A stretch of DNA of 64,000 nucleotides from Elusimicrobiota bacterium (GCA_027452025.1 DAIDHI010000080.1:58-64057); one strand, 5' to 3'; numbered from the stretch's first letter, positions 4,959-61,502 are shown. Notes: generated from the letters alone by a model not told the origin. Translations and numbers: made by a program.

Positions 4959-5666
4959 ATGAAAAATACGATCCTCGCCATCAGCCTGCTGTCGGTCTGC
5001 GCGCCGCTGCGCGCGCAGTTGCTCGTGCTCGATCCGGGCCACGGCGGCCACGATCTCGGGGCCGTCGTGCGCGGGCGCTACGAGAAGCGGCTCACGCTGG
5101 AGATCGCCCAAAAGCTCAAGGAAAAGCTAGAAAAAGAGGGGGCGTCGGTGGCGCTGACCCGCGATCACGACGTCTATCTGCCGCTCGACGAGCGCGTGAA
5201 TCTGGGCGAGCGCGGCGCCGCCTTCATCTCGCTGCATCTCAACGACGTGCGCTCGCGGCGCGAGCGCGGCATCACGGTCTACGCCTTCGGCCGCGACCGG
5301 CGCCGCATCCCGCGCCGCCGGCACCGATACGCCATCCCGCCGCTTCCCGCTCCGCCCATGCAGCAGCGGCGCCAGAGCGCGCGCCTGGCCGCCGCGTTCG
5401 TCGGCACGCTGCGCAGCCGAGGCTTCCGCGTCGACCCTCCGGCTCGCGCGGGCTTTTACGTGCTCAAGAATCCGGACGTTCCGAGCGTCCTCATCGAACT
5501 GGGCTACCTGAGCAACCCGCGGGAAGCGGCGCGCTTGGAAAGCCCCGCGTATCAGGACCGCCTGGCCGACGCCCTTGCCGCGAGCCTCAGGCGTTATTTC
5601 GGACCATTTGCCGGCTCCACGCTGCAGGCGAAAGCCTCCGCCCTCAGCGCCGGCCGCTTGCGTTGA
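4959..5666 (+). CDS. N-acetylmuramoyl-L-alanine amidase (Amidase_3 family)
   Basis: LVLDPGHGGHDLGAV, ...FISLHLN..., VLIELGYLSNPREA are classic Amidase_3 Zn-ligand and fold motifs. A signal peptide begins at MKNTILAISLLSVCA (ATG 4959). Confidence 0.85.
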   Translation: MKNTILAISLLSVCAPLRAQLLVLDPGHGGHDLGAVVRGRYEKRLTLEIAQKLKEKLEKEGASVALTRDHDVYLPLDERVNLGERGAAFISLHLNDVRSRRERGITVYAFGRDRRRIPRRRHRYAIPPLPAPPMQQRRQSARLAAAFVGTLRSRGFRVDPPARAGFYVLKNPDVPSVLIELGYLSNPREAARLESPAYQDRLADALAASLRRYFGPFAGSTLQAKASALSAGRLR

Positions 5667-6074: not shown

Positions 6075-6631
6075 TGCTGCTGGCGTTCTACAAGCCCTAC
6101 GGCGTGGTGTCTCAGTTCACTCCTCTGGCGGGACATCCCACCCTCGCCGGCTTCGGCCTGCCCAAGGGCGTCTACCCCTGCGGCCGCCTCGACCGCGACA
6201 GCGAAGGCCTGCTGCTGCTCACCGACGACGGGGCCCTCCAGCATCGGCTCAGCGACCCGAGATTCGGCCAAGCGCGGACCTACTGGGCCCAGGTGGAGGG
6301 GGCGGCGCAGGAAGCGGCGCTCGCCAGGCTGCGGCGAGGGCCCCGGCTTTCCGATGGCCCGACTAGGCCGTGCGAGGCCCGGAGGCTTTCGGCGGAGCCC
6401 GATCTTGCGCCGCGCGATCCGCCGATCCGCTACAGAAGGACGGTCGCCACTTCGTGGCTCGAGATCACGCTGACCGAAGGCCGCAACCGCCAGGTGCGGC
6501 GTATGACGGCCGCCGTCGGCCTGCCTACCCTGCGCCTGGTACGCGTGCGCCACGGCGGCGCCGGGCTCGAAGGGCTCGCGCCCGGAGAGTGGCGGCCGGT
6601 CCGTCCAGACACTGTCACGCGTTCGCGCTAG
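6074..6631 (+). CDS. RsuA/RluE-family pseudouridine synthase
   Basis: [17 protein letters not shown] catalytic-Asp motif and the ...[10 protein letters not shown] motif are present. The protein is short and lacks an S4 domain, as RluE does. GTG start. Confidence 0.8.
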
Positions 6632-6663
6632 GCCGGGTACGACGCCTTTGTTAGCATCGCGCC

Positions 6664-6945
6664 ATGTCCAACCGGGAATTTTTCTTCGTGGCGACGATGA
6701 CCCTGGGCCTGGCCTTCGCCAATCTCATGGGCCCGCATTGGCTGGTCCGCAAATTCGCGCCTGACGGCAGCTTCATCCTCTGGAAGGTGGTGCCGCGCCC
6801 GACCCTCCCCCGCCGGCGCCAACCTCAGACGCCGATGTCCTCGTTCCAGAGACGCGGATTGGAAGCGATGAAGCCGCGCATCAAGCCGATGCAAGCTTCG
6901 TCGCCGAGATCGACGATCTGGGCGCCTTGGGCGCGCAGCCAATGA
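6664..6945 (+). CDS. small hypothetical membrane protein (uncertain)
   Basis: ATG ORF with high GC3 in its first ~50 codons and one hydrophobic helix (FFFVATMTLGLAFANLM). Its 3' part overlaps the convergent deaminase gene by ~120 nt, so the real extent is doubtful. Confidence 0.3.
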   Translation: MSNREFFFVATMTLGLAFANLMGPHWLVRKFAPDGSFILWKVVPRPTLPRRRQPQTPMSSFQRRGLEAMKPRIKPMQASSPRSTIWAPWARSQ

Positions 6946-36389: not shown

Positions 36390-36426
36390 GCGGCCTCTCC
36401 GCTCGCGCGGAGAGGCCGCTCATTTT
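36390..36426. terminator. GC-rich hairpin between convergent transcripts (likely bidirectional terminator)
   Basis: 13-bp stem GCGGCCTCTCCGC / GCGGAGAGGCCGC with loop TCGC, followed on the + strand by TCATTTTA. It sits between the stop of the 36012-36371 gene and the 3' end of rnpB. Confidence 0.5.
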
Positions 36427-36797
36427 AGGGAGAGCCTGTACCCCGAATTCTGTTCCCCCCTCGCGGAGGGCGAGGATCATTTCTCTGATGCGGCTACCGA
36501 GGAGCCGCCCCGCCTCTCGGCGGGACCGCGCGGGCCGCGCGAGCTCCCACACTGCCTTGCTCCGGACGGGGTTTGCCGTGACGCCGTCCCTCGCGGGACG
36601 GCCGGTGGGCTCTTGCCCCACCTTTTCACCCTTGCACTCCGCACGGTCTGCGGAGTGCGGTTGTTCTCTGTGGCACTTTCCGTCGGCGAAGCGTATGGTC
36701 TTCGCCTCCCCGCCTTTCGACGGGCGTCCTGCCCTGCGGAGTTCGGAAGTTCCTCCCCCCGCGACGCGTCGCGGAAGGCGATCCCCCGGCTCTCCCT
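36427..36797 (-). ncRNA. rnpB: RNase P RNA (bacterial type A-like)
   Basis: The reverse complement contains GGAAAGTGCCACAGAGAACAACCGC, GCAAGGGTGAAAAGGTGGGGCAAGAGCCCACC, GGCAAACCCCGTCCGGAGCAAGG and ACAGAATTCGGGGTACAGG. P1 pairing is AGGGAGAGCC...GGCTCTCCCT. The ends are approximate. Confidence 0.85.
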
Positions 36798-51676: not shown

Positions 51677-51751
51677 TGGTGGGCAGTATAGGATTCGAAC
51701 CTATGACCCCTGTCGTGTGAGGACAGTGCTCTACCGCTGAGCTAACTGCCC
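51677..51751 (-). tRNA. tRNA-Val (anticodon CAC), CCA-encoded
   Basis: Reverse complement: GGGCAGT TA GCTC AGCGGTA GAGC A CTGTC CTCACAC GACAG GGGTC ATAGG TTCGAAT CCTAT ACTGCCC A CCA. This gives a full cloverleaf with a 7-bp acceptor stem and a TTCGAAT T-loop. Confidence 0.9.
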
Positions 51752-51862: not shown

Positions 51863-52378
51863 ATGAGCGACAGGCTTAAGGCGGCGAAGGCGCGGTTCGT
51901 GTCCACCTGGGGCGAGATGGCGTCCCATTGGGGCATCAACAAGACGATGGCGCGCATCCATGCGCTGCTCATCGCCTCCGACGCCGCGCTCTCGGTCGAC
52001 GAGATCATGGCAACGCTCTCGATCAGCCGCGGTAACGCCAGCATGAACCTGCGGGCGCTGATGGACTGGGGCCTGGTCAGGCGCGTTTCGGTGGGCAGCG
52101 AGCGGCGCGAGTATTTCCAGAGCGAGAAGGACGTCTGGAACATGTGCTGCCGCATCGCGCGCGAGCGCAAGAAGCGGGAGATCGAGCCCGTGATCGGCGC
52201 TCTGGAGGAATGCCTGCGCGAAGCCGGGGAAGGCCAGGACTCGGCGGCCTTCCGGCGCCGGACCAAGGAGCTCTTGGAGCTGGTCAAGACCCTCGATTTC
52301 GTGCTCGGCAAGGTCGCCGCGCAAGAGAAGAACGCCGTCATGCCGCGCGTGCTGACGCTGCTCAAGGCCATGTCATGA
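51863..52378 (+). CDS. GbsR/MarR-like winged-helix transcriptional regulator
   Basis: FVSTWGEMASHWGINKTMARIHALLIASDAALSVDEIMATLSISRGNASMNLRALMDWGLVRRV is the GbsR-type wHTH pattern. Confidence 0.7.
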   Translation: MSDRLKAAKARFVSTWGEMASHWGINKTMARIHALLIASDAALSVDEIMATLSISRGNASMNLRALMDWGLVRRVSVGSERREYFQSEKDVWNMCCRIARERKKREIEPVIGALEECLREAGEGQDSAAFRRRTKELLELVKTLDFVLGKVAAQEKNAVMPRVLTLLKAMS

Positions 52379-53319
52379 CTCCCGCTTCTTTATTAAAGGT
52401 GGAGGACTCGCTCTCCCGCGTTCGCGCGGGCCTGGAGAGCCGCGCCCTGCGCATCGAGGGCCGGGTCGGCCGGGAGCTGGCGGCCTTCGTGGCCCGCCCG
52501 GGAAAGATGCTGCGCTCGCGCTTCTGCCTGCTTTTGGGCGGCGCGCTGGGCGTGCCGCGGGACAAGGCCGAGGCGGCCGCCCGGGCGCTGGAGCTGGTGC
52601 ACAACGCCAGCCTCCTCCATGACGACTGCATCGACGAGGCCACGCTTCGCCGCAGCCGGCCCACGCCCAACGCCCTTTTCAACATCCCGACGGCGCTGCT
52701 CATCGGCGATCTGGCTTTTTCCCAAGGCCTCGAGGAGGCCGTGGACGTTTCGCCGAGCGCGGCCAAGCTCCTGGCCGCGGCGGTGCGCGAGATGTCGGTC
52801 GGGGAGCTTCAGGAGGAGTTCCTCAAGGGCGACGCCGACTTGACCGTCGACGCCTACATCGGCGTCTGCTCGCGCAAGACCGGCGCGCTCTTCGAGTGGG
52901 CCGGGGCGGTGCTCTCGGAGCTGAGCCCCTTTCCCCACGAGCAGGCGGACCCGCCGCGGCTGGCCTGCGCGGCCGGCATCCTCCTTCAGGTCGTCGACGA
53001 CATCCACGACTACACCCTGGGCGAGCGGGTGTCGGGCAAGGACGAGGGCCAGGACGTCAAGAACCGGCGGCTGACGCTGCCCTGCCTCTACGCCCTGGCC
53101 GACGCGCGGGCCCGCGAGGAGTTTCTCAAGCTTTGGCGAGGCGGCGACGCGACGGGAGTGGGACGGTTCCTCGTCGAGGGCGGGTTCGTCGCGAAGGCGC
53201 GCGGGAAGGGGCGGGAGCTGGCCGACTCCATGACGGCGATGGCGCGCGCCCTGCCCTGCCGCGCCGAGGCCTCCCAATTGGCCTTCTTCATCGACCTGCT
53301 GGTCAAGAGGGAATTTTGA
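52375..53319 (+). CDS. polyprenyl diphosphate synthase (trans-isoprenyl, FARM/SARM type)
   Basis: First Asp-rich motif LLHDDCIDE and second motif VVDDIHD. 314 aa. The ATG overlaps the regulator stop (ATGA). Confidence 0.88.
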   Translation: MTPASLLKVEDSLSRVRAGLESRALRIEGRVGRELAAFVARPGKMLRSRFCLLLGGALGVPRDKAEAAARALELVHNASLLHDDCIDEATLRRSRPTPNALFNIPTALLIGDLAFSQGLEEAVDVSPSAAKLLAAAVREMSVGELQEEFLKGDADLTVDAYIGVCSRKTGALFEWAGAVLSELSPFPHEQADPPRLACAAGILLQVVDDIHDYTLGERVSGKDEGQDVKNRRLTLPCLYALADARAREEFLKLWRGGDATGVGRFLVEGGFVAKARGKGRELADSMTAMARALPCRAEASQLAFFIDLLVKREF

Positions 53320-53320
53320 G

Positions 53321-53761
53321 ATGTCTTACGAGGCCCTGGTCAAGAAAGCGTGGGCGAGCGGGACGTTCAAGCTCGACGAGGCCGAGGCCGGAAAGGCCGA
53401 TCCGTCGGCGGCCGTCAGTCGCGAGGCCGTGCGCCGGGAGATGGAACAGATCGCGGAGAGGGAGACCTGGGACGCCGCAAGCTGCTTCTCCGCCCATAAA
53501 GAGGGAATCATGAAACTAGCTCCGTTCGTGAAGTTCCGTGAAGAGAAGTTCGGCGCCGTGCTCTTTGAGACGCGCTCGGAGAAGGTCTATACGCTCAGCC
53601 CGAGCGGCGCCGCCGTCGTGCGGGAAGTGGTCGCCGGGGCCACTTCCAGCGACCTGCCGGCCAGGCTCAAGCAGAAGTTCGAGGACCCCACCGGGAAGAT
53701 GGAGCAGGAAGCGGCAAGCTTCCTGGCCCAGCTCAAGGACAAGGGCCTCGTCGTCGAGTAG
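53321..53761 (+). CDS. PqqD-family peptide chaperone (RRE) with 63-aa N-terminal extension
   Basis: The C-terminal 83 aa (MKLAPFVKFREEKFGAVLFETRSEKVYTLSPSGAAVVREV...FLAQLKDKGLVV) show the PqqD/MftB pattern. The N-terminal 63 aa have high GC3, so they are probably translated. There is an internal alternative start at 53510. Both ATGs are preceded by AAGAGGGAAT. Confidence 0.7.
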   Translation: MSYEALVKKAWASGTFKLDEAEAGKADPSAAVSREAVRREMEQIAERETWDAASCFSAHKEGIMKLAPFVKFREEKFGAVLFETRSEKVYTLSPSGAAVVREVVAGATSSDLPARLKQKFEDPTGKMEQEAASFLAQLKDKGLVVE

Positions 53762-53767
53762 GGCGCC

Positions 53768-54739
53768 GTGACCGCGCAAGCTCCCGAAAGCGCGCCGCAG
53801 ACGGGCACCGAGGATCTCGGCGCCCCGCTCTACGTCGCCTGGCAGATCACCAACGAGTGCAACCTGGCCTGCCTACACTGCATCGAGGAGTCCGGGCCGG
53901 GAAAGGCCTTCAAGGACGAGCTGACCACCGAGGAGGCTTACCGCCTCATCGACCAGCTCGCGCAAGGCGAGGTGCCCTACGTCTCCTTCTCGGGCGGCGA
54001 GCCGATGGTCCGGCCGGACTTCTTCGGCATGGTCGAGAGAATCACTCGGGGCGGCGTCGGGCTCAAGATCGAGACCAACGGCCATTACCTAACCGCTGAC
54101 AACTGCCGCCGCCTCAAGGACCTGGGCGTCAAGGCCGTCCAGGTCTCCCTCGACGGCGCCAGCCCCGCCTCGTTCAACAAGATGCGGGTCCACGGCCGCT
54201 TCGAGTCGGCGCTGGAAGGCATCGGCCGGCTGCGCGAGGCGGGCGTGCCGATCGAAATCAACTTCGTGCCGGCGAAGTTTAATATCCGCGAGATCGGCGC
54301 CGCCGTCGACTTGGCCTACCGGCTCGGGGCGTATTCGTTCTATACCGGCAAGCTGATGTATACCGGCAACGCCGTGCGCACCTGGGGCATCACCGCCCCC
54401 GACGAGGCGGAGTATCCCGCCTACTTCGCCGCGCTCAAGGAGAAGGCCAAGGAGTACGAAGGCCGCATGCGCGTCTACTACCACGAGATGGGGCTGCTCG
54501 AGGAGCTGCGCTACCGCCTGAAAAACCCCGCCGCCCTCTTCATCGTCCTGCCCAACGGCAAGGTCAAGCTCATCAACGCCCTGCCCTTTATCTGCGGCGA
54601 CCTGCGCCGCCAGAGCCTGGGCCAGGTCTGGCAGAGCTTCCAGCTCGCCTGGAAAAGCCCGCGGGTCAGCGCCTTCATCGACGAGCTCGCCGCCGACCCC
54701 TCGATCCTGTCTCGTCTGCACCGCTGGGAGGAGGTCTAG
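53768..54739 (+). CDS. radical SAM enzyme, PqqE/AhbD-like core, SPASM cysteines absent (paralog 1)
   Basis: YVAWQITNECNLACLHC (Cx3Cx2C), SFSGGEP, KIETNG, VQVSLDG. The C-terminal region ...VLPNGKVKLINALPFICGDL keeps only one Cys. Confidence 0.85.
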   Translation: MTAQAPESAPQTGTEDLGAPLYVAWQITNECNLACLHCIEESGPGKAFKDELTTEEAYRLIDQLAQGEVPYVSFSGGEPMVRPDFFGMVERITRGGVGLKIETNGHYLTADNCRRLKDLGVKAVQVSLDGASPASFNKMRVHGRFESALEGIGRLREAGVPIEINFVPAKFNIREIGAAVDLAYRLGAYSFYTGKLMYTGNAVRTWGITAPDEAEYPAYFAALKEKAKEYEGRMRVYYHEMGLLEELRYRLKNPAALFIVLPNGKVKLINALPFICGDLRRQSLGQVWQSFQLAWKSPRVSAFIDELAADPSILSRLHRWEEV

Positions 54740-54745
54740 GCGGAC

Positions 54746-55633
54746 ATGAGCCTCGTCGGCAAGGCCGCGGCGCTGGTGCGCTACCGCTTCTTTCTCTACG
54801 CGGGCCTCCTGCCCTATCTGCTGGGCGCGGCCTGGGCCTACGGCGTGGACCGGCAGTTTCGGCCCGGCGTCTTCTGGCTCGGCCTGCTCGGGATCTTCCT
54901 CGCCGTCGTCGGAGTCGAGAGCTTCAACGAGTATTTCGACGCGAAGATGGGGACCGACCGGGTCTTCAATCCCGACGCCGACGAGAACATCCCGGAGTGG
55001 ATGTTCTCGCTCGGCGTGGCCGCCTTCGCGCTGGCCGCGGCGGTCGGCTTCTACCTGGCCTGGGAAGGCGGCTGGCCCGTGGTCCTCTATACTCTGCTCG
55101 GCGGCGCCGCCGCCGTCTGGTACGTGGGCCCGCCCGTGCGCTGGGTCTACCGGGGCCTTGGCGAGGCCGTGATCGGGCTGTCCTACGGCCCGTGGATGAC
55201 GCTGGGCTCGGTGCAGCTGCACACGCACCGTTTTTCCTGGGGCGCGCTGGCCGCGTCGCTCGTCCCCGGCCTGCTGATCATGGCGCTGGCCGTGGTCAAC
55301 AACATCCCCGATTATCATCAGGACCGGCTGGTCGGCAAGAGGAACCTCGTCGTGAGGCTGGGCCGGGAGAAGGGACGGCTGCTCTACCTCGCCTTGTCGG
55401 GGCTGGGCTTGGCCGTGATCGTCGCCGGAGCGGCGGCGGGGACGTTCCCGCGCCTTTGCCTGCTGGCCGCGCTGCCCGGCGCCGCCCTTTGGTGGGCGAG
55501 CCTGCGCGCCGGCCGGGACACCTGGGACACGCCCCGCGCCTTCCTGCCGGCCATCAAGAGCATCGTGCAATGCTACGCCTTGACGACGCTGATCTTCGCC
55601 TTGGCGGTGGCGTTCGGAGCGCGCCTGGCATGA
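54746..55633 (+). CDS. UbiA-superfamily aromatic prenyltransferase, MenA-like
   Basis: NEYFDAKMGTD (compare MenA NDYGDAVKGSD) and NNIPDYHQDRLVGKRNLVVRLG (compare MenA NNLRDINSDRENGKNTLVVRLG, recalled from E. coli). 8-9 TM helices. Confidence 0.85.
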   Translation: MSLVGKAAALVRYRFFLYAGLLPYLLGAAWAYGVDRQFRPGVFWLGLLGIFLAVVGVESFNEYFDAKMGTDRVFNPDADENIPEWMFSLGVAAFALAAAVGFYLAWEGGWPVVLYTLLGGAAAVWYVGPPVRWVYRGLGEAVIGLSYGPWMTLGSVQLHTHRFSWGALAASLVPGLLIMALAVVNNIPDYHQDRLVGKRNLVVRLGREKGRLLYLALSGLGLAVIVAGAAAGTFPRLCLLAALPGAALWWASLRAGRDTWDTPRAFLPAIKSIVQCYALTTLIFALAVAFGARLA

Positions 55634-56592
55634 GGATCGATTCCCTGAGCGCCCCGGCGATGGTCGCCTGGCAGCTCACGCGCGACTGCAACCTCGCCTG
55701 CCTGCACTGCTGCACGGACTCCGCGCCGGGCCGGGCGCTGCCCGGCGAGCTGCCGCGCGAGAGAGCCCTGTCTCTGGCGCGCGAGATCGCCGAGGCGGGC
55801 GTGCCTTACGCGCTGATCGCCGGCGGCGAGCCGAGCTTGGTCTCGCATTTCGGCGAGGTCTGCGCCGCGCTTTCCCAGGGCGGCGTCTGGCTCAAGGTCG
55901 AGACCAACGGCCAGAGCTTCGACGTCTCGGCGCTGCGCGGCCTGCGCGTGCGCTCGGTGCAAGTCTCGCTCGACGGCGCGACTCGGCGCGTCTACGCCCG
56001 ACAGCGGCCGGGCGGCGACCTGGAGAAGGCCCTGGCCTGCGGCCGCGCCGTGCGCGCCGCCGGGCTGCCCCTGGAGATCACGTTCGCCCCCACTCTCCTC
56101 AACATCGACGAGGCCGGCGCCGTCATCGACTTGGCCCTGGAGCTCGGAGCCTTCCGCTTCAACACCGGAAGGCTCATGCGATTGGGCACCGCCGCCAAGC
56201 TCTGGCAGCGCCTGGAGCCTTCGCAGGAGCGCTACGAAAGGTTCCTCGCGCTGCTCGAGCGGCGCGAGCGCGAGCTGGCCGGACGCCTGGAGCTGTGCTT
56301 CCGGCCGTTTTCGCTGCCCGAGGATGCCCGGGCCCTCAGACGCGAGCCCCCGGGGACCTTGCTGATCCTCCCCGACGGCCGCGTGAAAGTGGCCGCGCCG
56401 CTGCCCTACACCTGTTTCGACGTGACGAAACGTCCGTTTCTCGAGGCGTGGGACGCGTATCGCAAGTCTTTCGGCGATCCGCGCGTCCTGCGCGCCTTCG
56501 AGCGCCTCGCCGCCGACCCCGCGTCGTCGGCGAAGGCCAATGAGTGGGTCGACCTGGAGTCCGTCGCCTTCGATTTGCCGGCCGTGGTCTGA
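55630..56592 (+). CDS. radical SAM enzyme, PqqE/AhbD-like core, SPASM cysteines absent (paralog 2)
   Basis: MVAWQLTRDCNLACLHC, IAGGEP, KVETNG, VQVSLDG, ...ILPDGRVKVAAPLPYTCFDV. The ATG overlaps the prenyltransferase stop (ATGA). Confidence 0.85.
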   Translation: MRIDSLSAPAMVAWQLTRDCNLACLHCCTDSAPGRALPGELPRERALSLAREIAEAGVPYALIAGGEPSLVSHFGEVCAALSQGGVWLKVETNGQSFDVSALRGLRVRSVQVSLDGATRRVYARQRPGGDLEKALACGRAVRAAGLPLEITFAPTLLNIDEAGAVIDLALELGAFRFNTGRLMRLGTAAKLWQRLEPSQERYERFLALLERRERELAGRLELCFRPFSLPEDARALRREPPGTLLILPDGRVKVAAPLPYTCFDVTKRPFLEAWDAYRKSFGDPRVLRAFERLAADPASSAKANEWVDLESVAFDLPAVV

Positions 56593-56612
56593 CCGGCAGA
56601 CAGGAGTCAAGC

Positions 56613-56735
56613 ATGAACGACCAGAAGAAGACCGTGACCGTCGTGAAGGCCGAGCCGAAGCTCGTTTGGCAGACCCCCTCCCTGGAGGAGGTCTCCGATC
56701 GGGTGATGGCGCAGCCTTACATCCGGTTCACGTGA
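56613..56735 (+). CDS. 40-aa candidate precursor peptide (PqqA-like): MNDQKKTVTVVKAEPKLVWQTPSLEEVSDRVMAQPYIRFT
   Basis: AGGAG SD lies 7 nt upstream of ATG 56613. 37 of 40 codons end in G/C by hand count. The TGA stop overlaps the GTG start of the next radical SAM gene (GTGA). It is visible only as the tail of the listed ORF 56544-56735. Confidence 0.6.
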   Translation: MNDQKKTVTVVKAEPKLVWQTPSLEEVSDRVMAQPYIRFT

Positions 56736-57700
56736 CGCACGGGAGAGGGGCGTCCGTGGGCGACTACGGCGCCCCTCTCTTTCTGGCCTGGCAGCTGACC
56801 AACCGCTGCACGGGCAGCTGCCTGCACTGCTGCGAGGAATCCGGGCCCGACAAGGCTTGGCCCGACGAGATGAGCCGCGAGCAGTGCTTGTCGCTGGCCC
56901 GGCAGATCGCGCGCATGGGCGTGCCTTACGTGGCCTTCGGCGGCGGCGAGCCGATGGGCTCGCCCCACGTCTGGGAGATCTTCGAGATCCTGGCGCGCGG
57001 CGGCGTCGAGATCAAGATCGAGACCAACGGGCTGCTCCTGGACGACGCGGCCTGCGACCGGCTCAAGGCCTTGAACGTCGCCTGCGTGCAGATCTCCATC
57101 GACGGGGCGACGGCCGCCGTTCACGAGGGCCTGCGTCCCGGCTCCGGCTACGCGCCGGCCTGGGAGGCGATCGACCGCCTGGTCTCGCGCGGCCTGGGTC
57201 CCGAGCTCGTTTTCATCCCCACCAAGCTCAACGTCTCCGGCGCCGTCGCCGTCTATGAGCAAGCGGCGCGGCGGGGCGTGCGCACGTTCGTGACGGGGCC
57301 GCTCATGCGCCTGGGGCGGGCCGCCGCGGCCTGGGAGGCCCTGGCCTGCTCCGAGGAGCAATGGGCCGCCGCGGCCGAGGCCCTGCGGCAGGCCTCGCTG
57401 CGCGAAAAAGGCCCGCGCCTGGCGCTCTATCCTTGGGGCATCCAGGCCGAGATGAAGACCCGCGCCGAAAGCCCGCAGGCCATGGTGCTGGTCGTGCCCA
57501 ACGGCCGGGTCAAGCTCCTCAACGCCCTGCCCTTCGCCGCCGCCGACCTCAAGACCGAGACGCTGGCCGCGGCCTGGCCGAAGGTCGCCGCCGCCTGGCG
57601 GCGGCCCGAGGTCCAGGACTTCGTGCGCCGCGCGCAAAGCGACCCCGGTCTTCTGCGCCACGCCAACGAGTGCTGGGACGTGGCCCTCGCCGGCGCCTAA
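56732..57700 (+). CDS. radical SAM enzyme, PqqE/AhbD-like core, SPASM cysteines absent (paralog 3)
   Basis: LFLAWQLTNRCTGSCLHC, FGGGEP, KIETNG, VQISIDG, ...VVPNGRVKLLNALPFAAADL (no Cys at the SPASM-entry position). GTG 56732 is preferred, and GTG 56756 is also in frame. Confidence 0.85.
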   Translation: MTHGRGASVGDYGAPLFLAWQLTNRCTGSCLHCCEESGPDKAWPDEMSREQCLSLARQIARMGVPYVAFGGGEPMGSPHVWEIFEILARGGVEIKIETNGLLLDDAACDRLKALNVACVQISIDGATAAVHEGLRPGSGYAPAWEAIDRLVSRGLGPELVFIPTKLNVSGAVAVYEQAARRGVRTFVTGPLMRLGRAAAAWEALACSEEQWAAAAEALRQASLREKGPRLALYPWGIQAEMKTRAESPQAMVLVVPNGRVKLLNALPFAAADLKTETLAAAWPKVAAAWRRPEVQDFVRRAQSDPGLLRHANECWDVALAGA

Positions 57701-57744
57701 AACTCGCTGCGACGGGCGGCAAAACTGCTATCCTGAGACGTCGC

Positions 57745-58191
57745 ATGGCGGCTCTCTTTCCTCACGGCTGGATCCATTACTTGGCGGGCGGCCTGCTCAT
57801 CGGCTGCGGGGTCTCGCTGATCTATCTCTGCACCGGCGTGGCCGCCGGCACGAGCTCTTTTTTCAGCGCGCAGTGGTCCTGGTTCTCGCGCCTGGGCTTT
57901 TTTAGGCAGGAGCGCTGGCGCGAGGAACGCGGCTGGCGGCTGATCTACGCCGCCGGCCTGGTCGCCGGAGCGCTGCTTTGGCGGCTCGAGACCGGCGTCT
58001 GCCTGACGACGTCCGTGGAGCCGCGCAGGCTCCTCGTCGGCGGCCTGCTGGCCGGCTTCGGTGCGCGCCTTTCGGGCGGCTGCACGGCCGGCCACGGCAT
58101 CTGCGGCCTCGCCTCTCTCAAGAAGGAGTCTTTCGTGGCCGTTCCCGTCTTCCTGCTCACGGCGATCCTCGTGGCGAGGCTCCTGCCGTGA
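57745..58191 (+). CDS. YeeE/YedE-family (sulfur-compound transport) membrane protein, half-size subunit 1
   Basis: GGLLIGCGVSLIYL... and ...LSGGCTAGHGICGL conserved Cys motifs of the YeeE/YedE family. 148 aa. Confidence 0.75.
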   Translation: MAALFPHGWIHYLAGGLLIGCGVSLIYLCTGVAAGTSSFFSAQWSWFSRLGFFRQERWREERGWRLIYAAGLVAGALLWRLETGVCLTTSVEPRRLLVGGLLAGFGARLSGGCTAGHGICGLASLKKESFVAVPVFLLTAILVARLLP

Positions 58192-58598
58192 AGCGCGCCG
58201 CCGCGGCGCTCTTGGGCGGCGTCCTCTTCGGCCTGGGCCTGGCCGTTTCCGGCATGGTCCGGCCCGAGACCGTCCTCGATTTCCTCCACCTGCGCGACAT
58301 GGGCCTTTTGCTCGTGCTCGGCGGGGCGGCGGGCGTCAGCCTCCTCGCCTTCCAGCTCGCGCCGCGGCTGCTCGGCCGGCCGGCGTTCGGAGGAAGCTTC
58401 GAGCCGCATCCCGGGCGCCTGAGCGGACGCACCTTCGCCGGCGCGGCGATCTTCGGGGCGGGCTGGGGCCTGTGCGGAGTCTGCCCGGGGCCGGCCGTGG
58501 CGGGCCTGGGCGCGGGCCTGACGGCGCTCTTGTGGTCCGTCGCCGGGCTCGCGCTCGGCGCCTGGCTGCACGGGCTCTATCAAGAGCTGGCCGGCTAG
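58188..58598 (+). CDS. YeeE/YedE-family membrane protein, half-size subunit 2
   Basis: LLGGVLFGLGLAVSGM...GAGWGLCGVCPGPA motif. The GTG overlaps the upstream stop (GTGA). Confidence 0.7.
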   Translation: MKRAAAALLGGVLFGLGLAVSGMVRPETVLDFLHLRDMGLLLVLGGAAGVSLLAFQLAPRLLGRPAFGGSFEPHPGRLSGRTFAGAAIFGAGWGLCGVCPGPAVAGLGAGLTALLWSVAGLALGAWLHGLYQELAG

Positions 58599-59860: not shown

Positions 59861-60241
59861 ATGCCAATCACCACAGATCGTCAGACGTCCGTCGCGGGAG
59901 CCGTGGACTATTTCCGCGCCAAGCTCCAGTTCGAGACGACGCCGCACCAAGTCAAGGCCGCCGTCGAGCATGGCGACATCGTGCTCCTCGACGTGCGCGA
60001 CGCCGAGTCCTACAAGGCCGAACGCATCCCCGGCGCCAAGAACGTCCCCATGACCGAGCTCGAGAAGCACCTCAAGAGCCTGCCCAAGGACAAGACCCTC
60101 GTGACCTACTGCTGGAACATCACCTGCGCCATGGCGCCCAAGGCGGCCCTCATGCTGGCCGAGAAAGGCTTCCAGGTCCAGGAGCTCGTCGGCGGCCTGG
60201 AGGAATACCGCAAGAAGTTTCCCACCGAAAAGGCCAAGTAG
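59861..60241 (+). CDS. rhodanese-like domain protein
   Basis: VLLDVRDAESYKAERIPGAKNVP ... TLVTYCWNITCAMAPKAA (active-site Cys loop). Confidence 0.85.
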   Translation: MPITTDRQTSVAGAVDYFRAKLQFETTPHQVKAAVEHGDIVLLDVRDAESYKAERIPGAKNVPMTELEKHLKSLPKDKTLVTYCWNITCAMAPKAALMLAEKGFQVQELVGGLEEYRKKFPTEKAK

Positions 60242-60259: not shown

Positions 60260-60294
60260 GACCCCGCTCGCCCCGCGAGCGGGGTCTTTTTTTT
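60260..60294 (+). terminator. Rho-independent terminator
   Basis: GACCCCGCTCG / CGAGCGGGGTC 11-bp stem, loop CCCCG, followed by T8 (60287-60294). The T-run overlaps the stop codon of the convergent gene. Confidence 0.85.
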
Positions 60295-61502
60295 CAGCGC
60301 AAGACCAGCCGCGAGTCCGGCGGCCACAGGCGCGGCGTCTGATCCCGGCCGAAGCCCCGGGCCGCGTCCTCGACGCGCGGCGCGAGATAGCGCTCGAGGC
60401 CCGCGGCCGTCACGCGGCCGGAGGCGTCGGCGGCCTCGCCGTCGAGGCCCTTGAGCAGGTAATACGTGAAGGCGCCATGGCCGACGCGGTCGAGCGAGAC
60501 GGAGACTTGCCTCGGGCCGGAGGCCGTCAGGACGGTCAGCGTGGGGTCGCGAGGCAGAGCTGATTCGACCCGCGTGACCAGCGGGCGGACGTTGGAGGCC
60601 AGGACCGAGCGCGGGCCCGCGCCCGAAAAGCAGGCGTCGAGCGCGACGAAGGTTTGGCGCGCGCCGAGCTCGGAAAGGTCGGCATAGAGGCGTTTGAGCG
60701 GGAAGCCAGTTTTCTTGAGGTAGTTCGCATCGCCGTCCCAGGGCACCAGATAAGCCGCGCCGGTGACCGGGTCCGGCGCTCCGTGGCCGGAAAAGAAGAA
60801 ATAGACCCGGCTGTCCTCCTTGACGCGGCGAGGCAGCCACAGCTCCAGGTATTTCTCCAGGCTCGCCAGCCCGGCCTTGTCGTCGGCCAGGAAGACCACG
60901 TTGCGCGGCGGCACGCCCAGGGCGAGCAGGTGCCGGTAGACGGCCCGGGCGTCGCGCACGGCGTAGCGCGCGTCGGGCAGGTCCGAATAATGCTCGACGC
61001 CGACGGCCACGGCCAGGTCGTGCGGCCGCTGCGGCAGCCGGTAGTCCGGCTCGGCCAGCGGGTCCTCGGAGCCGGGCAGCGGCCCGGGCGCGGACGGCTG
61101 GGCCCCGGCCGCCGGCAGCGAGGCGAGCAGGCCGGGGTCGGAGAGCAGCCGGCGGGCGACCTTCCGCGACAAGTCGCGCATCGCGCCCGACCACGTCCAG
61201 AGGCTGCGCGTCTCGACTGAAAAAAGCCGCCGCGAGCGGGCGCCGTCGTAGACGTCCGCGGTGAATCCCACGCCGCGCCCGAGCTCTATTTGCAGGTCGC
61301 AGTCCCGCTTGCCCTGCCGCGCGCGGTCAAACTCCGCGGCGTAGCGCAGAAACAGGGGAACCAGCGGCTCGTCGTCGGCGGTCTTGGCCGAGACGCAGAC
61401 CGCGGCGTCGAACCCCGCGCGCGCCGGCGCGGCGGCGGGCCCGAAGGACGACAGAAGGAGCAGAAGCGCGGCGGTCATGCGGCGGGGCGGGGCTAGCCGC
61501 AA
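60294..61502 (-). CDS. secreted caspase-like (peptidase C14) domain protein
   Basis: Signal peptide. A C14 His-Cys dyad context is present: YFFFSGHGAPD and FVALDACFSGAG. The start is 61502 or 61478. Confidence 0.72.
   Translation of the reverse strand: MRLAPPRRMTAALLLLLSSFGPAAAPARAGFDAAVCVSAKTADDEPLVPLFLRYAAEFDRARQGKRDCDLQIELGRGVGFTADVYDGARSRRLFSVETRSLWTWSGAMRDLSRKVARRLLSDPGLLASLPAAGAQPSAPGPLPGSEDPLAEPDYRLPQRPHDLAVAVGVEHYSDLPDARYAVRDARAVYRHLLALGVPPRNVVFLADDKAGLASLEKYLELWLPRRVKEDSRVYFFFSGHGAPDPVTGAAYLVPWDGDANYLKKTGFPLKRLYADLSELGARQTFVALDACFSGAGPRSVLASNVRPLVTRVESALPRDPTLTVLTASGPRQVSVSLDRVGHGAFTYYLLKGLDGEAADASGRVTAAGLERYLAPRVEDAARGFGRDQTPRLWPPDSRLVLR

Follow-up and report, generated by a model that had tools for sequence, protein, structure and literature searches.

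The general view is that radical S-adenosylmethionine (SAM) enzymes which modify peptides with the help of a chaperone of the PqqD type require the auxiliary clusters of a SPASM or twitch domain, for which roles in electron transfer and substrate binding have been proposed (PMC10114670). What, then, is to be made of a locus in which three such enzymes stand beside a PqqD-family gene and the cysteines of that domain are gone? The locus lies in a stretch of 64,000 nucleotides from an Elusimicrobiota bacterium (GCA_027452025.1, DAIDHI010000080.1:58-64057), called here the window, and its three radical SAM proteins are named rSAM-A, rSAM-B and rSAM-C. We found that they belong to a conserved cassette with a discrete PqqD-family protein, an obligatorily linked membrane prenyltransferase and an almost invariant small peptide, which the cassette probably modifies and provides with a lipid tail. 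On balance we favour, with some reserve, the view that the trio are peptide maturases descended from SPASM enzymes of the PqqE/MftC type, that the radical SAM cluster is the only one they use, and that their product is placed in the membrane by prenylation.

The radical SAM trio and its missing SPASM cysteines

The three genes are on the plus strand of the window, and each product is recognised by the Pfam model Radical_SAM:

53768..54739, plus strand, rSAM-A, 323 aa, GTG start
55630..56592, plus strand, rSAM-B, 320 aa, ATG start overlapping the stop codon of the UbiA gene
56732..57700, plus strand, rSAM-C, 322 aa, GTG start overlapping the stop codon of the peptide gene

A preliminary description of the window had reported three radical SAM paralogues of 323, 320 and 322 aa with a common set of sequence blocks. 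The coordinates of the open reading frames (ORFs) and pairwise identities of 38-40% confirm this, and the blocks AWQ(I/L)T, CX3CX2C, GGEP, ETNG, VQ(V/I)S(L/I)DG and P(N/D)G(K/R)VK...LP(F/Y) were found in all three proteins. The Pfam Radical_SAM matches have E values of 1e-18 to 6e-26. In an orthologue census covering 63-83 orthologues per paralogue from related loci, neither CX3CX2C nor GGEP varies. Given these intact radical SAM motifs, the three proteins are predicted, with the same reserve as above, to be active enzymes. The SPASM model PF13186 matched none of the trio in the Pfam search. In NCBIfam no family with an assigned substrate was reached at cut-off; the best matches below it were AhbD, NirJ2, MftC and PqqE.

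The SPASM domain (TIGR04085/PF13186) is defined by seven cysteines, arranged as CX9-15GX4C, a gap, CX2CX5CX3C, a gap and a last C, which serve two auxiliary clusters. The corresponding columns were defined by MftC, PqqE and two SPASM enzymes of an Indioceanicola plasmid, with which the trio was aligned. In 30 of 30 family members aligned, each of the seven columns holds a residue other than cysteine or a gap. The trio aligns with the SPASM enzymes through the beta-hairpin ('P.G.V') and the next helix and lacks the block of about 32 aa that carries CX2CX5CX3C; the alignment picks up again at the 'DP' after which the last SPASM cysteine normally follows. The claim that the auxiliary-cluster cysteines had been lost therefore stands, and so does the count of 1, 1 and 0 cysteines in the hairpin segments of rSAM-A, rSAM-B and rSAM-C (FICGDL, YTCFDV and FAAADL), to which C223 of rSAM-B and C206 and C314 of rSAM-C have to be added in the C-terminal parts.

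The fold of this region points to the same origin. The AlphaFold2 model of rSAM-A (mean predicted local distance difference test score, pLDDT, 91) shows a partial barrel followed by three short strands (residues 257-260, 265-267 and 274-278) and helices, as in the C-terminal hairpin and helix of the SPASM fold. Its best matches among solved structures in a Foldseek search were SkfB, PqqE, BlsE, SuiB and viperins, and SkfB and PqqE were also the top matches of a sequence search of the PDB. The C-terminal segment, which had been thought to come from a SPASM or twitch domain, can accordingly be described as a hairpin-plus-helix remnant. In the reading that we favour, both auxiliary Fe-S clusters would have been lost and this shell of the domain kept.

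Could other cysteines hold a cluster? In the census, which counted cysteines outside CX3CX2C, the only conserved ones in rSAM-A are C113 (95%) and C276 (100%). rSAM-B conserves the motif-adjacent C28 (100%), C137/138 (94%), C223 (92%) and C262 (97%), the last in the same column as C276 of rSAM-A; rSAM-C conserves the motif-adjacent C34 (100%), C118 (90%) and C206 (65%), and no cysteine in the hairpin. None of these residues falls on a SPASM ligand column, and more distant members of the family, among them the three Acidianus brierleyi paralogues, which read 'VVAD' there, lack even the hairpin cysteine. An auxiliary cluster is therefore not a family-wide feature. The cysteines for a twitch-type cluster, held by three or four of them as in BtrN, MoaA and SkfB, are not found in most of these proteins either: rSAM-A has a single cysteine in the domain, rSAM-C has no conserved one and the Acidianus paralogues have none. 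In rSAM-B, which may differ in this respect, C223 and C262 sit in the twitch-type domain and C137/138 in the core. The scattered cysteines that might have overturned the reported loss (those in CRRL, CAAL, CDRL and ACVQ) miss the ligand columns, and hidden auxiliary ligands were rejected for rSAM-A and rSAM-C by both the alignment and the census.

The history of the trio was examined in a neighbour-joining tree with 100 bootstraps, in which the A, B and C proteins and the single-copy forms found in smaller cassettes (see below) were set against PqqE, MftC and the Indioceanicola enzymes. The whole family is monophyletic in 100/100 bootstraps, so that the suggestion of a distinct subfamily is upheld, and 87/100 place rSAM-A together with the single-copy enzymes. 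The monophyly of the family, together with the grouping of rSAM-A with the single-copy type, implies that the cysteine loss is ancestral. Of the three paralogues rSAM-A is conserved best, and its orthologue in minimal cassettes is their single radical SAM protein; its place in the tree marks it as the original enzyme, rSAM-B and rSAM-C being later paralogues. The three Acidianus proteins are 56-74% identical to one another, about 50% identical to the single-copy forms and 32-38% identical to the A, B and C proteins of the window, a pattern that speaks for a second, independent expansion to three copies. The recurrence of this expansion hints at three chemical steps or sites, and in minimal cassettes one enzyme would then do all the steps that are divided elsewhere.

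The closest relatives outside the family are SPASM peptide maturases associated with PqqD. The nearest of them come from an Indioceanicola profundi plasmid (NZ_CP030128.1; locus L088, 5026-9850), where a small ORF, an NTF2-like protein, a radical SAM gene, PqqD and two more radical SAM genes follow one another. This cluster has complete SPASM cysteines, adjoins TIR and SIR2 genes, and is a multi-enzyme cluster of the kind that makes ribosomally synthesised peptides with post-translational modifications (RiPPs), without characterisation so far.

The peptide and the conserved cassette

The radical SAM genes alternate with the other genes of one operon, all on the plus strand:

51863..52378, plus strand, MarR/ArsR-type regulator (Pfam MarR_2 and HTH_20), first gene of the operon in Elusimicrobiota-type loci
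52375..53319, plus strand, polyprenyl diphosphate synthase (Pfam polyprenyl_synt, E = 5.8e-41), the likely source of the prenyl donor
53321..53761, plus strand, PqqD-family peptide chaperone, i.e. a RiPP recognition element (RRE), 146 aa (Pfam PqqD, E = 2.5e-9, domain at residues 79-144)
54746..55633, plus strand, UbiA-superfamily, MenA-like polyprenyltransferase, integral membrane protein, 295 aa (Pfam UbiA, E = 2.5e-23)
56613..56735, plus strand, putative 40-aa precursor peptide MNDQKKTVTVVKAEPKLVWQTPSLEEVSDRVMAQPYIRFT; a Shine-Dalgarno sequence of its own, AGGAG, lies 8 nt upstream of the ATG

The genes overlap or nearly abut in the order regulator, polyprenyl diphosphate synthase, PqqD, rSAM-A, UbiA, rSAM-B, peptide, rSAM-C; the stop codon of the regulator overlaps the start of the synthase, and that of the peptide overlaps the start of rSAM-C (GTGA). 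The assignment of the prenyltransferase to the UbiA superfamily is supported by a PF01040 score of 83 bits against a gathering threshold of 34 and by both Asp-rich motifs, NEYFDAKMGTD at residue 61 and NNIPDYHQD at residue 185. Its gene adjoins a radical SAM gene in all cassette types. No NCBIfam model was reached at cut-off by any component of the cassette, including the peptide, for which there was no match, and the PqqD protein of the window, for which all PqqD-type models stayed below their cut-offs. The latter protein carries an N-terminal extension of 63 aa (window 53321-53509; MSYEALLRKAWKSGDF...EIAARE.WDA.SC) that is specific to Elusimicrobiota, is conserved at the protein level across many metagenome-assembled genomes (MAGs) and is absent from the proteobacterial and archaeal PqqD proteins, which have 79-89 aa.

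The peptide is a real and strongly constrained coding gene. After a variable N-terminal stretch all its versions follow the consensus W-x-x-P-x-[LMIV]-x-[DE]-V-[ST]-x-x-[VIL]-[MTV]-A-Q-P-[YF]-I-R-F-T-stop. Among 72 distinct DNA versions the last six codons vary synonymously only, except for the alternation of Tyr (65) with Phe (7), and the Arg of the core is written with five different codons. The genomes that bear the peptide range from an archaeon of 34% G+C to a bacterium of 68% G+C; in Acidianus the core has Phe, not Tyr. The cassette has the general arrangement of a RiPP locus, in which a genetically encoded peptide, made up of a leader and a core that is conserved, adjoins the genes for an RRE/PqqD protein and for a maturase.

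How widely the cassette occurs was followed from both the enzymes and the peptide. rSAM-A has hundreds of close relatives with 64-85% identity, mostly in Elusimicrobiota MAGs. A scan of one genome per species gave at least 565 matching stretches; the best 80 belong to Elusimicrobiota, Casimicrobiaceae/Usitatibacter, other Burkholderiales, Steroidobacteraceae, other Gammaproteobacteria and one Rhodopila contig. The order PqqD, rSAM-A, UbiA, rSAM-B, peptide, rSAM-C is kept in every locus long enough to show it (about 80 loci, from Elusimicrobiota, Burkholderiales and other Gammaproteobacteria). The polyprenyl diphosphate synthase and the regulator, which are the only consistent extra neighbours, are added only in Elusimicrobiota-type loci: the synthase stands directly upstream of PqqD in about 40 of these and is absent from the proteobacterial and archaeal cassettes, and the regulator is kept upstream in 13.

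A profile of the peptide, run against 1.84 billion representative proteins, gave 98 matches, nearly all of them family members, a few with variant cores. From the contigs of these matches, and from a homology search seeded with their radical SAM proteins, we recovered a minimal form of the cassette with the peptide, PqqD, one radical SAM gene and UbiA. It occurs in one MAG each of Syntrophomonadaceae (Bacillota), Planctomycetota and Nitrososphaerales, the last with archaeal ribosomal proteins on the same contig, and in unassigned contigs, one of which bears PCNA. In two of the contigs the PqqD gene had not been called and was recovered by translation. In locus L092 (1700-2563) the UbiA gene of the minimal cassette looks frameshifted or misassembled, since the N-terminal part with the first Asp-rich motif is in a different frame from the called product of 178 aa.

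Among cultured organisms, Acidianus brierleyi and Acidianus ambivalens have the order peptide, PqqD, rSAM, UbiA, rSAM, with a third radical SAM gene 4 kb away. Their radical SAM products carry only the name 'radical SAM protein' in the records, and the peptide gene is absent from the called genes of the records examined. It is found directly upstream of PqqD (MQEISKSKKTWEKPEMIDVSQKVMAQPFIRFT; 6624-6722 in locus L094, A. brierleyi CP029289.2, and 5536-5649 in locus L095, A. ambivalens). From Acidianus infernus we recovered only fragments of 47 aa (P0395, P0397 and P0399) that cluster with the A. brierleyi/A. ambivalens radical SAM protein, which suggests recent loss or pseudogenisation of the cassette.

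Several neighbours are lineage-specific or local. In nine Burkholderiales-type loci (L001, 5951-9551, and eight others) an operon for succinate dehydrogenase/fumarate reductase (Sdh_cyt, flavoprotein and Fe-S subunit) lies on the same strand and ends about 200 nt upstream of PqqD, so that a quinone-dependent enzyme stands beside a prenyltransferase cassette. A BtuFCD-like ABC transporter (Peripla_BP_2, FecCD and ABC_tran) follows directly downstream of the Acidianus cassette (L094, 9863-12802), a similar transporter adjoins the planctomycete cassette within a CobU-CobT-CobS operon (L098, 8006-12993), and a tetrapyrrole methylase stands beside the third Acidianus radical SAM gene; these neighbours may reflect coincidence or a corrinoid link. 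In the window, rSAM-C is followed on its 3' side by a split gene pair for YeeE/YedE-type sulphur transport (57730-58598), a rhodanese (59861-60241) and a caspase-family (C14) peptidase (60294-61502), none of which is conserved beside the cassette in other loci. The outer genes are unrelated and comprise sulphur-transport fragments, a TPR protein, the rhodanese, the caspase-like peptidase, MsrA and a Crp-type regulator. A tRNA gene lies just upstream of the operon regulator (51680-51751, minus strand) and a bacterial class A RNase P RNA (182 bits) at 36423-36797 on the minus strand. No riboswitch was found in the window or in four cassette loci.

Relation to known systems

We classify the cassette as an RRE-dependent radical SAM peptide pathway like those of pyrroloquinoline quinone (PQQ) and mycofactocin, made unusual by the complete loss of the SPASM clusters and by an integral UbiA prenyltransferase. 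The likeness to the PQQ system begins with the small precursor. Rhizobium PqqA (MKWTAPKFVEVSCGMEINRYAQ...) shares with the peptide, in register, the W, P, E, V and S of a W-x-x-P-x-[FL]-x-E-V-S...Y motif and its Tyr at position 18 from the Trp. Both systems have a discrete PqqD-family protein, and PqqE, which ranks second among the solved structural matches, aligns with the cassette enzymes over the hairpin and the helix after it. There are several differences: the cross-linking Glu of the PqqA E-x3-Y motif is replaced by Met or Thr in the cassette peptide, the Tyr can be Phe and the C-terminus is fixed as ...IRFT; the enzymes are without the SPASM cysteines, and the cassette has its integral prenyltransferase. 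PqqB and PqqC were found neither in the window nor in 97 loci (1.27 Mb), and the NCBIfam scores are far from the cut-offs (90 bits against 381 for PqqE, 20 against 46 for PqqD). A variant of PQQ synthesis was therefore rejected on the absence of PqqB, PqqC and the cross-linking Glu. A Tyr-derived PQQ-like quinone is also unlikely, because the core aromatic residue can be Phe.

Mycofactocin offers a second parallel, since there too a PqqD-type chaperone and a related radical SAM enzyme act at the extreme C-terminus of a peptide to give a peptide-derived small molecule. The MftC model TIGR03962 is among the best sub-threshold matches (83-126 bits against a cut-off of 265), and MftB reaches 22 bits against 33. 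The two systems differ in that MftA ends in GVY and the cassette peptide in IRFT, and MftD, MftE and MftF are absent from the cassette. Moreover, MftC requires its SPASM clusters (PMC10114670), of which the cassette enzymes have none. The closest match of all is SkfB, a RiPP radical SAM enzyme of the twitch type (PDB 6efn; profile E = 1.1e-33, Foldseek E = 2.6e-17, template modelling (TM) score 0.73), which has the same shortened C-terminal hairpin-helix architecture. Unlike the cassette proteins, which have no ligand cysteine after the hairpin, SkfB retains its twitch auxiliary cluster, and it has an N-terminal extension.

The peptide epimerases PoyD and YydG/EpeE abstract and return a hydrogen atom on a ribosomal peptide in a redox-neutral manner, with a conserved cysteine as the hydrogen donor. 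They are candidates for a similar way of working only: EpeE structures are among the Foldseek matches of the rSAM-A model, and rSAM-A, rSAM-B and most single-copy members have one invariant cysteine just after the hairpin, but there is no membership at the sequence level and that cysteine is missing in rSAM-C and in all three Acidianus paralogues. The prenyltransferase, in turn, resembles MenA, with the Pfam UbiA domain, both Asp-rich motifs and polyprenyltransferases of 1,4-dihydroxy-2-naphthoate (DHNA) as its best NCBIfam matches; the best of these gives 109 bits where the cut-off is 264, and the protein is partnered with a peptide, an RRE and radical SAM enzymes, not with men or mqn genes. 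We know of no UbiA-family enzyme in a RiPP-type pathway, and literature searches found none either. Searches of the literature aimed at the cassette itself likewise found no published description.

Caldariellaquinone, a tyrosine-derived prenylated benzothiophene quinone of the Sulfolobales with an unknown pathway, was considered as a product. It is unlikely, as the Acidianus core has Phe and A. infernus has only the gene fragment, and it is also disfavoured by the lack of any Sulfolobus, Saccharolobus or Metallosphaera protein among the 120 best radical SAM matches.

A proposed pathway and its rivals

In the pathway that we propose, the discrete PqqD chaperone would bind the conserved leader W-x-x-P-x-[LM]-x-[DE]-V-[ST]. 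The ancestral rSAM-A, and then rSAM-B and rSAM-C, would each introduce a single modification into the core after abstraction of a hydrogen atom, using the radical SAM cluster only. Auxiliary cluster I has been identified in SuiB as the oxidant of the cross-linked radical, and the auxiliary clusters of MftC are thought to serve reversible electron transfer (PMC10114670). The lack of such clusters in the cassette enzymes favours redox-neutral outcomes (e.g. epimerisation, or radical addition followed by return of a hydrogen atom) or, alternatively, chemistry in which the radical SAM cluster takes the electron back. The interleaved MenA-like UbiA protein would then add a polyprenyl chain, whose donor would come in Elusimicrobiota from the co-operonic polyprenyl diphosphate synthase. 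UbiA-family enzymes alkylate aromatic carbons, hydroxyls and carboxylates. In the peptide, the prenyl chain might be placed on an aromatic carbon, on the hydroxyl of the Thr, on the side chain of the Arg, on the fixed carboxylate at the C-terminus or on a group that the radical SAM enzymes have formed. The product would be a membrane-anchored, peptide-derived molecule, and the invariance of the core across domains makes a cofactor-like or structural metabolite more probable than an antibiotic of variable sequence.

Some observations weigh against this proposal. The cassette is patchily distributed, as an accessory trait passed on by horizontal transfer could be, and the conserved neighbours of the loci show no consistent link to a protease, an exporter or a client enzyme. 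The peptide profile recovered no true PqqA from the representative proteins, nor did the PqqA model give a link, so that homology to PqqA has the in-register motif as its sole ground. The alternation of Tyr and Phe at core position 18, set against the Tyr-derived quinone of PQQ, leaves the simple reading as a redox cofactor without an obvious chemical basis. rSAM-B, finally, keeps three conserved extra cysteines (C137/138, C223 and C262), and this paralogue may retain a residual cluster.

The constancy of the trio might instead mean that the three proteins form an obligate heteromer that shares the work, either as one catalytic subunit with two scaffolds or through an interface cluster built from scattered cysteines. 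The three genes are indeed always together in fixed order within a six-gene cassette, each paralogue keeps one to three conserved cysteines outside the motif, and Acidianus evolved three copies on its own. Pure scaffolds, however, would not be expected to preserve the full CX3CX2C and GGEP under purifying selection in all three proteins, minimal cassettes have a single radical SAM enzyme beside the same peptide, PqqD and UbiA, and the Acidianus paralogues without the hairpin cysteine preclude a family-wide interface cluster; we regard the heteromer as unlikely. If the product were an ordinary RiPP secondary metabolite, such as a prenylated lipopeptide antibiotic or signal spread by horizontal transfer, the patchy distribution, the fragments left in A. 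infernus, the typical architecture of leader, RRE and radical SAM enzyme, and an outgroup that is a classic multi-enzyme RiPP cluster would all be in keeping with that. Yet the core is identical, with synonymous change only, from the archaeon of low G+C to the bacterium of high G+C, no immunity, export or protease genes are linked among the conserved neighbours, and the Elusimicrobiota rSAM-A proteins stay 64-85% identical across many species, which makes this explanation improbable to a similar degree.

Very unlikely, in our judgement, is a non-peptide substrate, with radical SAM enzymes acting like AhbD/NirJ on a tetrapyrrole or on a quinone ring, the peptide and PqqD as mere accessories, and a prenylated small molecule of the heme O, chlorophyll or menaquinone kind as the product of UbiA. 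AhbD and NirJ2 head the sub-threshold NCBIfam matches, the prenyltransferase is MenA-like, and the tetrapyrrole methylase, the BtuFCD-like transporters of Acidianus and a planctomycete, and the succinate dehydrogenase/fumarate reductase operon of several Burkholderiales could be taken as signs of such a pathway. These neighbours are lineage-specific, however, whereas PqqD and the invariant peptide occur in every cassette type and in both domains; the best score for AhbD/AhbC/NirJ is 147 bits against a cut-off of 500, that for MenA is similarly far below its own, the conserved neighbours include neither ahb nor nir genes, and the nearest outside relatives are the PqqD-associated peptide maturases. 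The peptide pathway with cluster-less maturases and a prenylated product is thus the reading that we retain. A bolder version of it, which we hold only tentatively and consider doubtful, is that the cassette makes a new ribosomally encoded, polyprenylated membrane cofactor, a lipid-anchored relative of PQQ and mycofactocin formed without auxiliary clusters, that is shared by Bacteria and Archaea, including cultivable Acidianus, for membrane redox or another essential-type process. If this were true, the independent expansion from one to three radical SAM enzymes in two lineages would correspond to the number of chemical steps, three, that the P-[Y/F]-I-R-F-T core undergoes.

The cassette also exposes a gap in annotation, as the Acidianus peptide genes have escaped gene calling in the records examined and none of the components is covered by an NCBIfam model at cut-off. 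Its presence in cultured A. brierleyi and A. ambivalens means that the product can be sought directly. For the combination of a peptide core that is invariant in both prokaryotic domains with a membrane UbiA prenyltransferase we found no earlier account, and it points to peptide-derived, lipid-linked metabolites of a new class; a whole clade that is without auxiliary clusters yet under strong selection offers a natural test of what these clusters are for.

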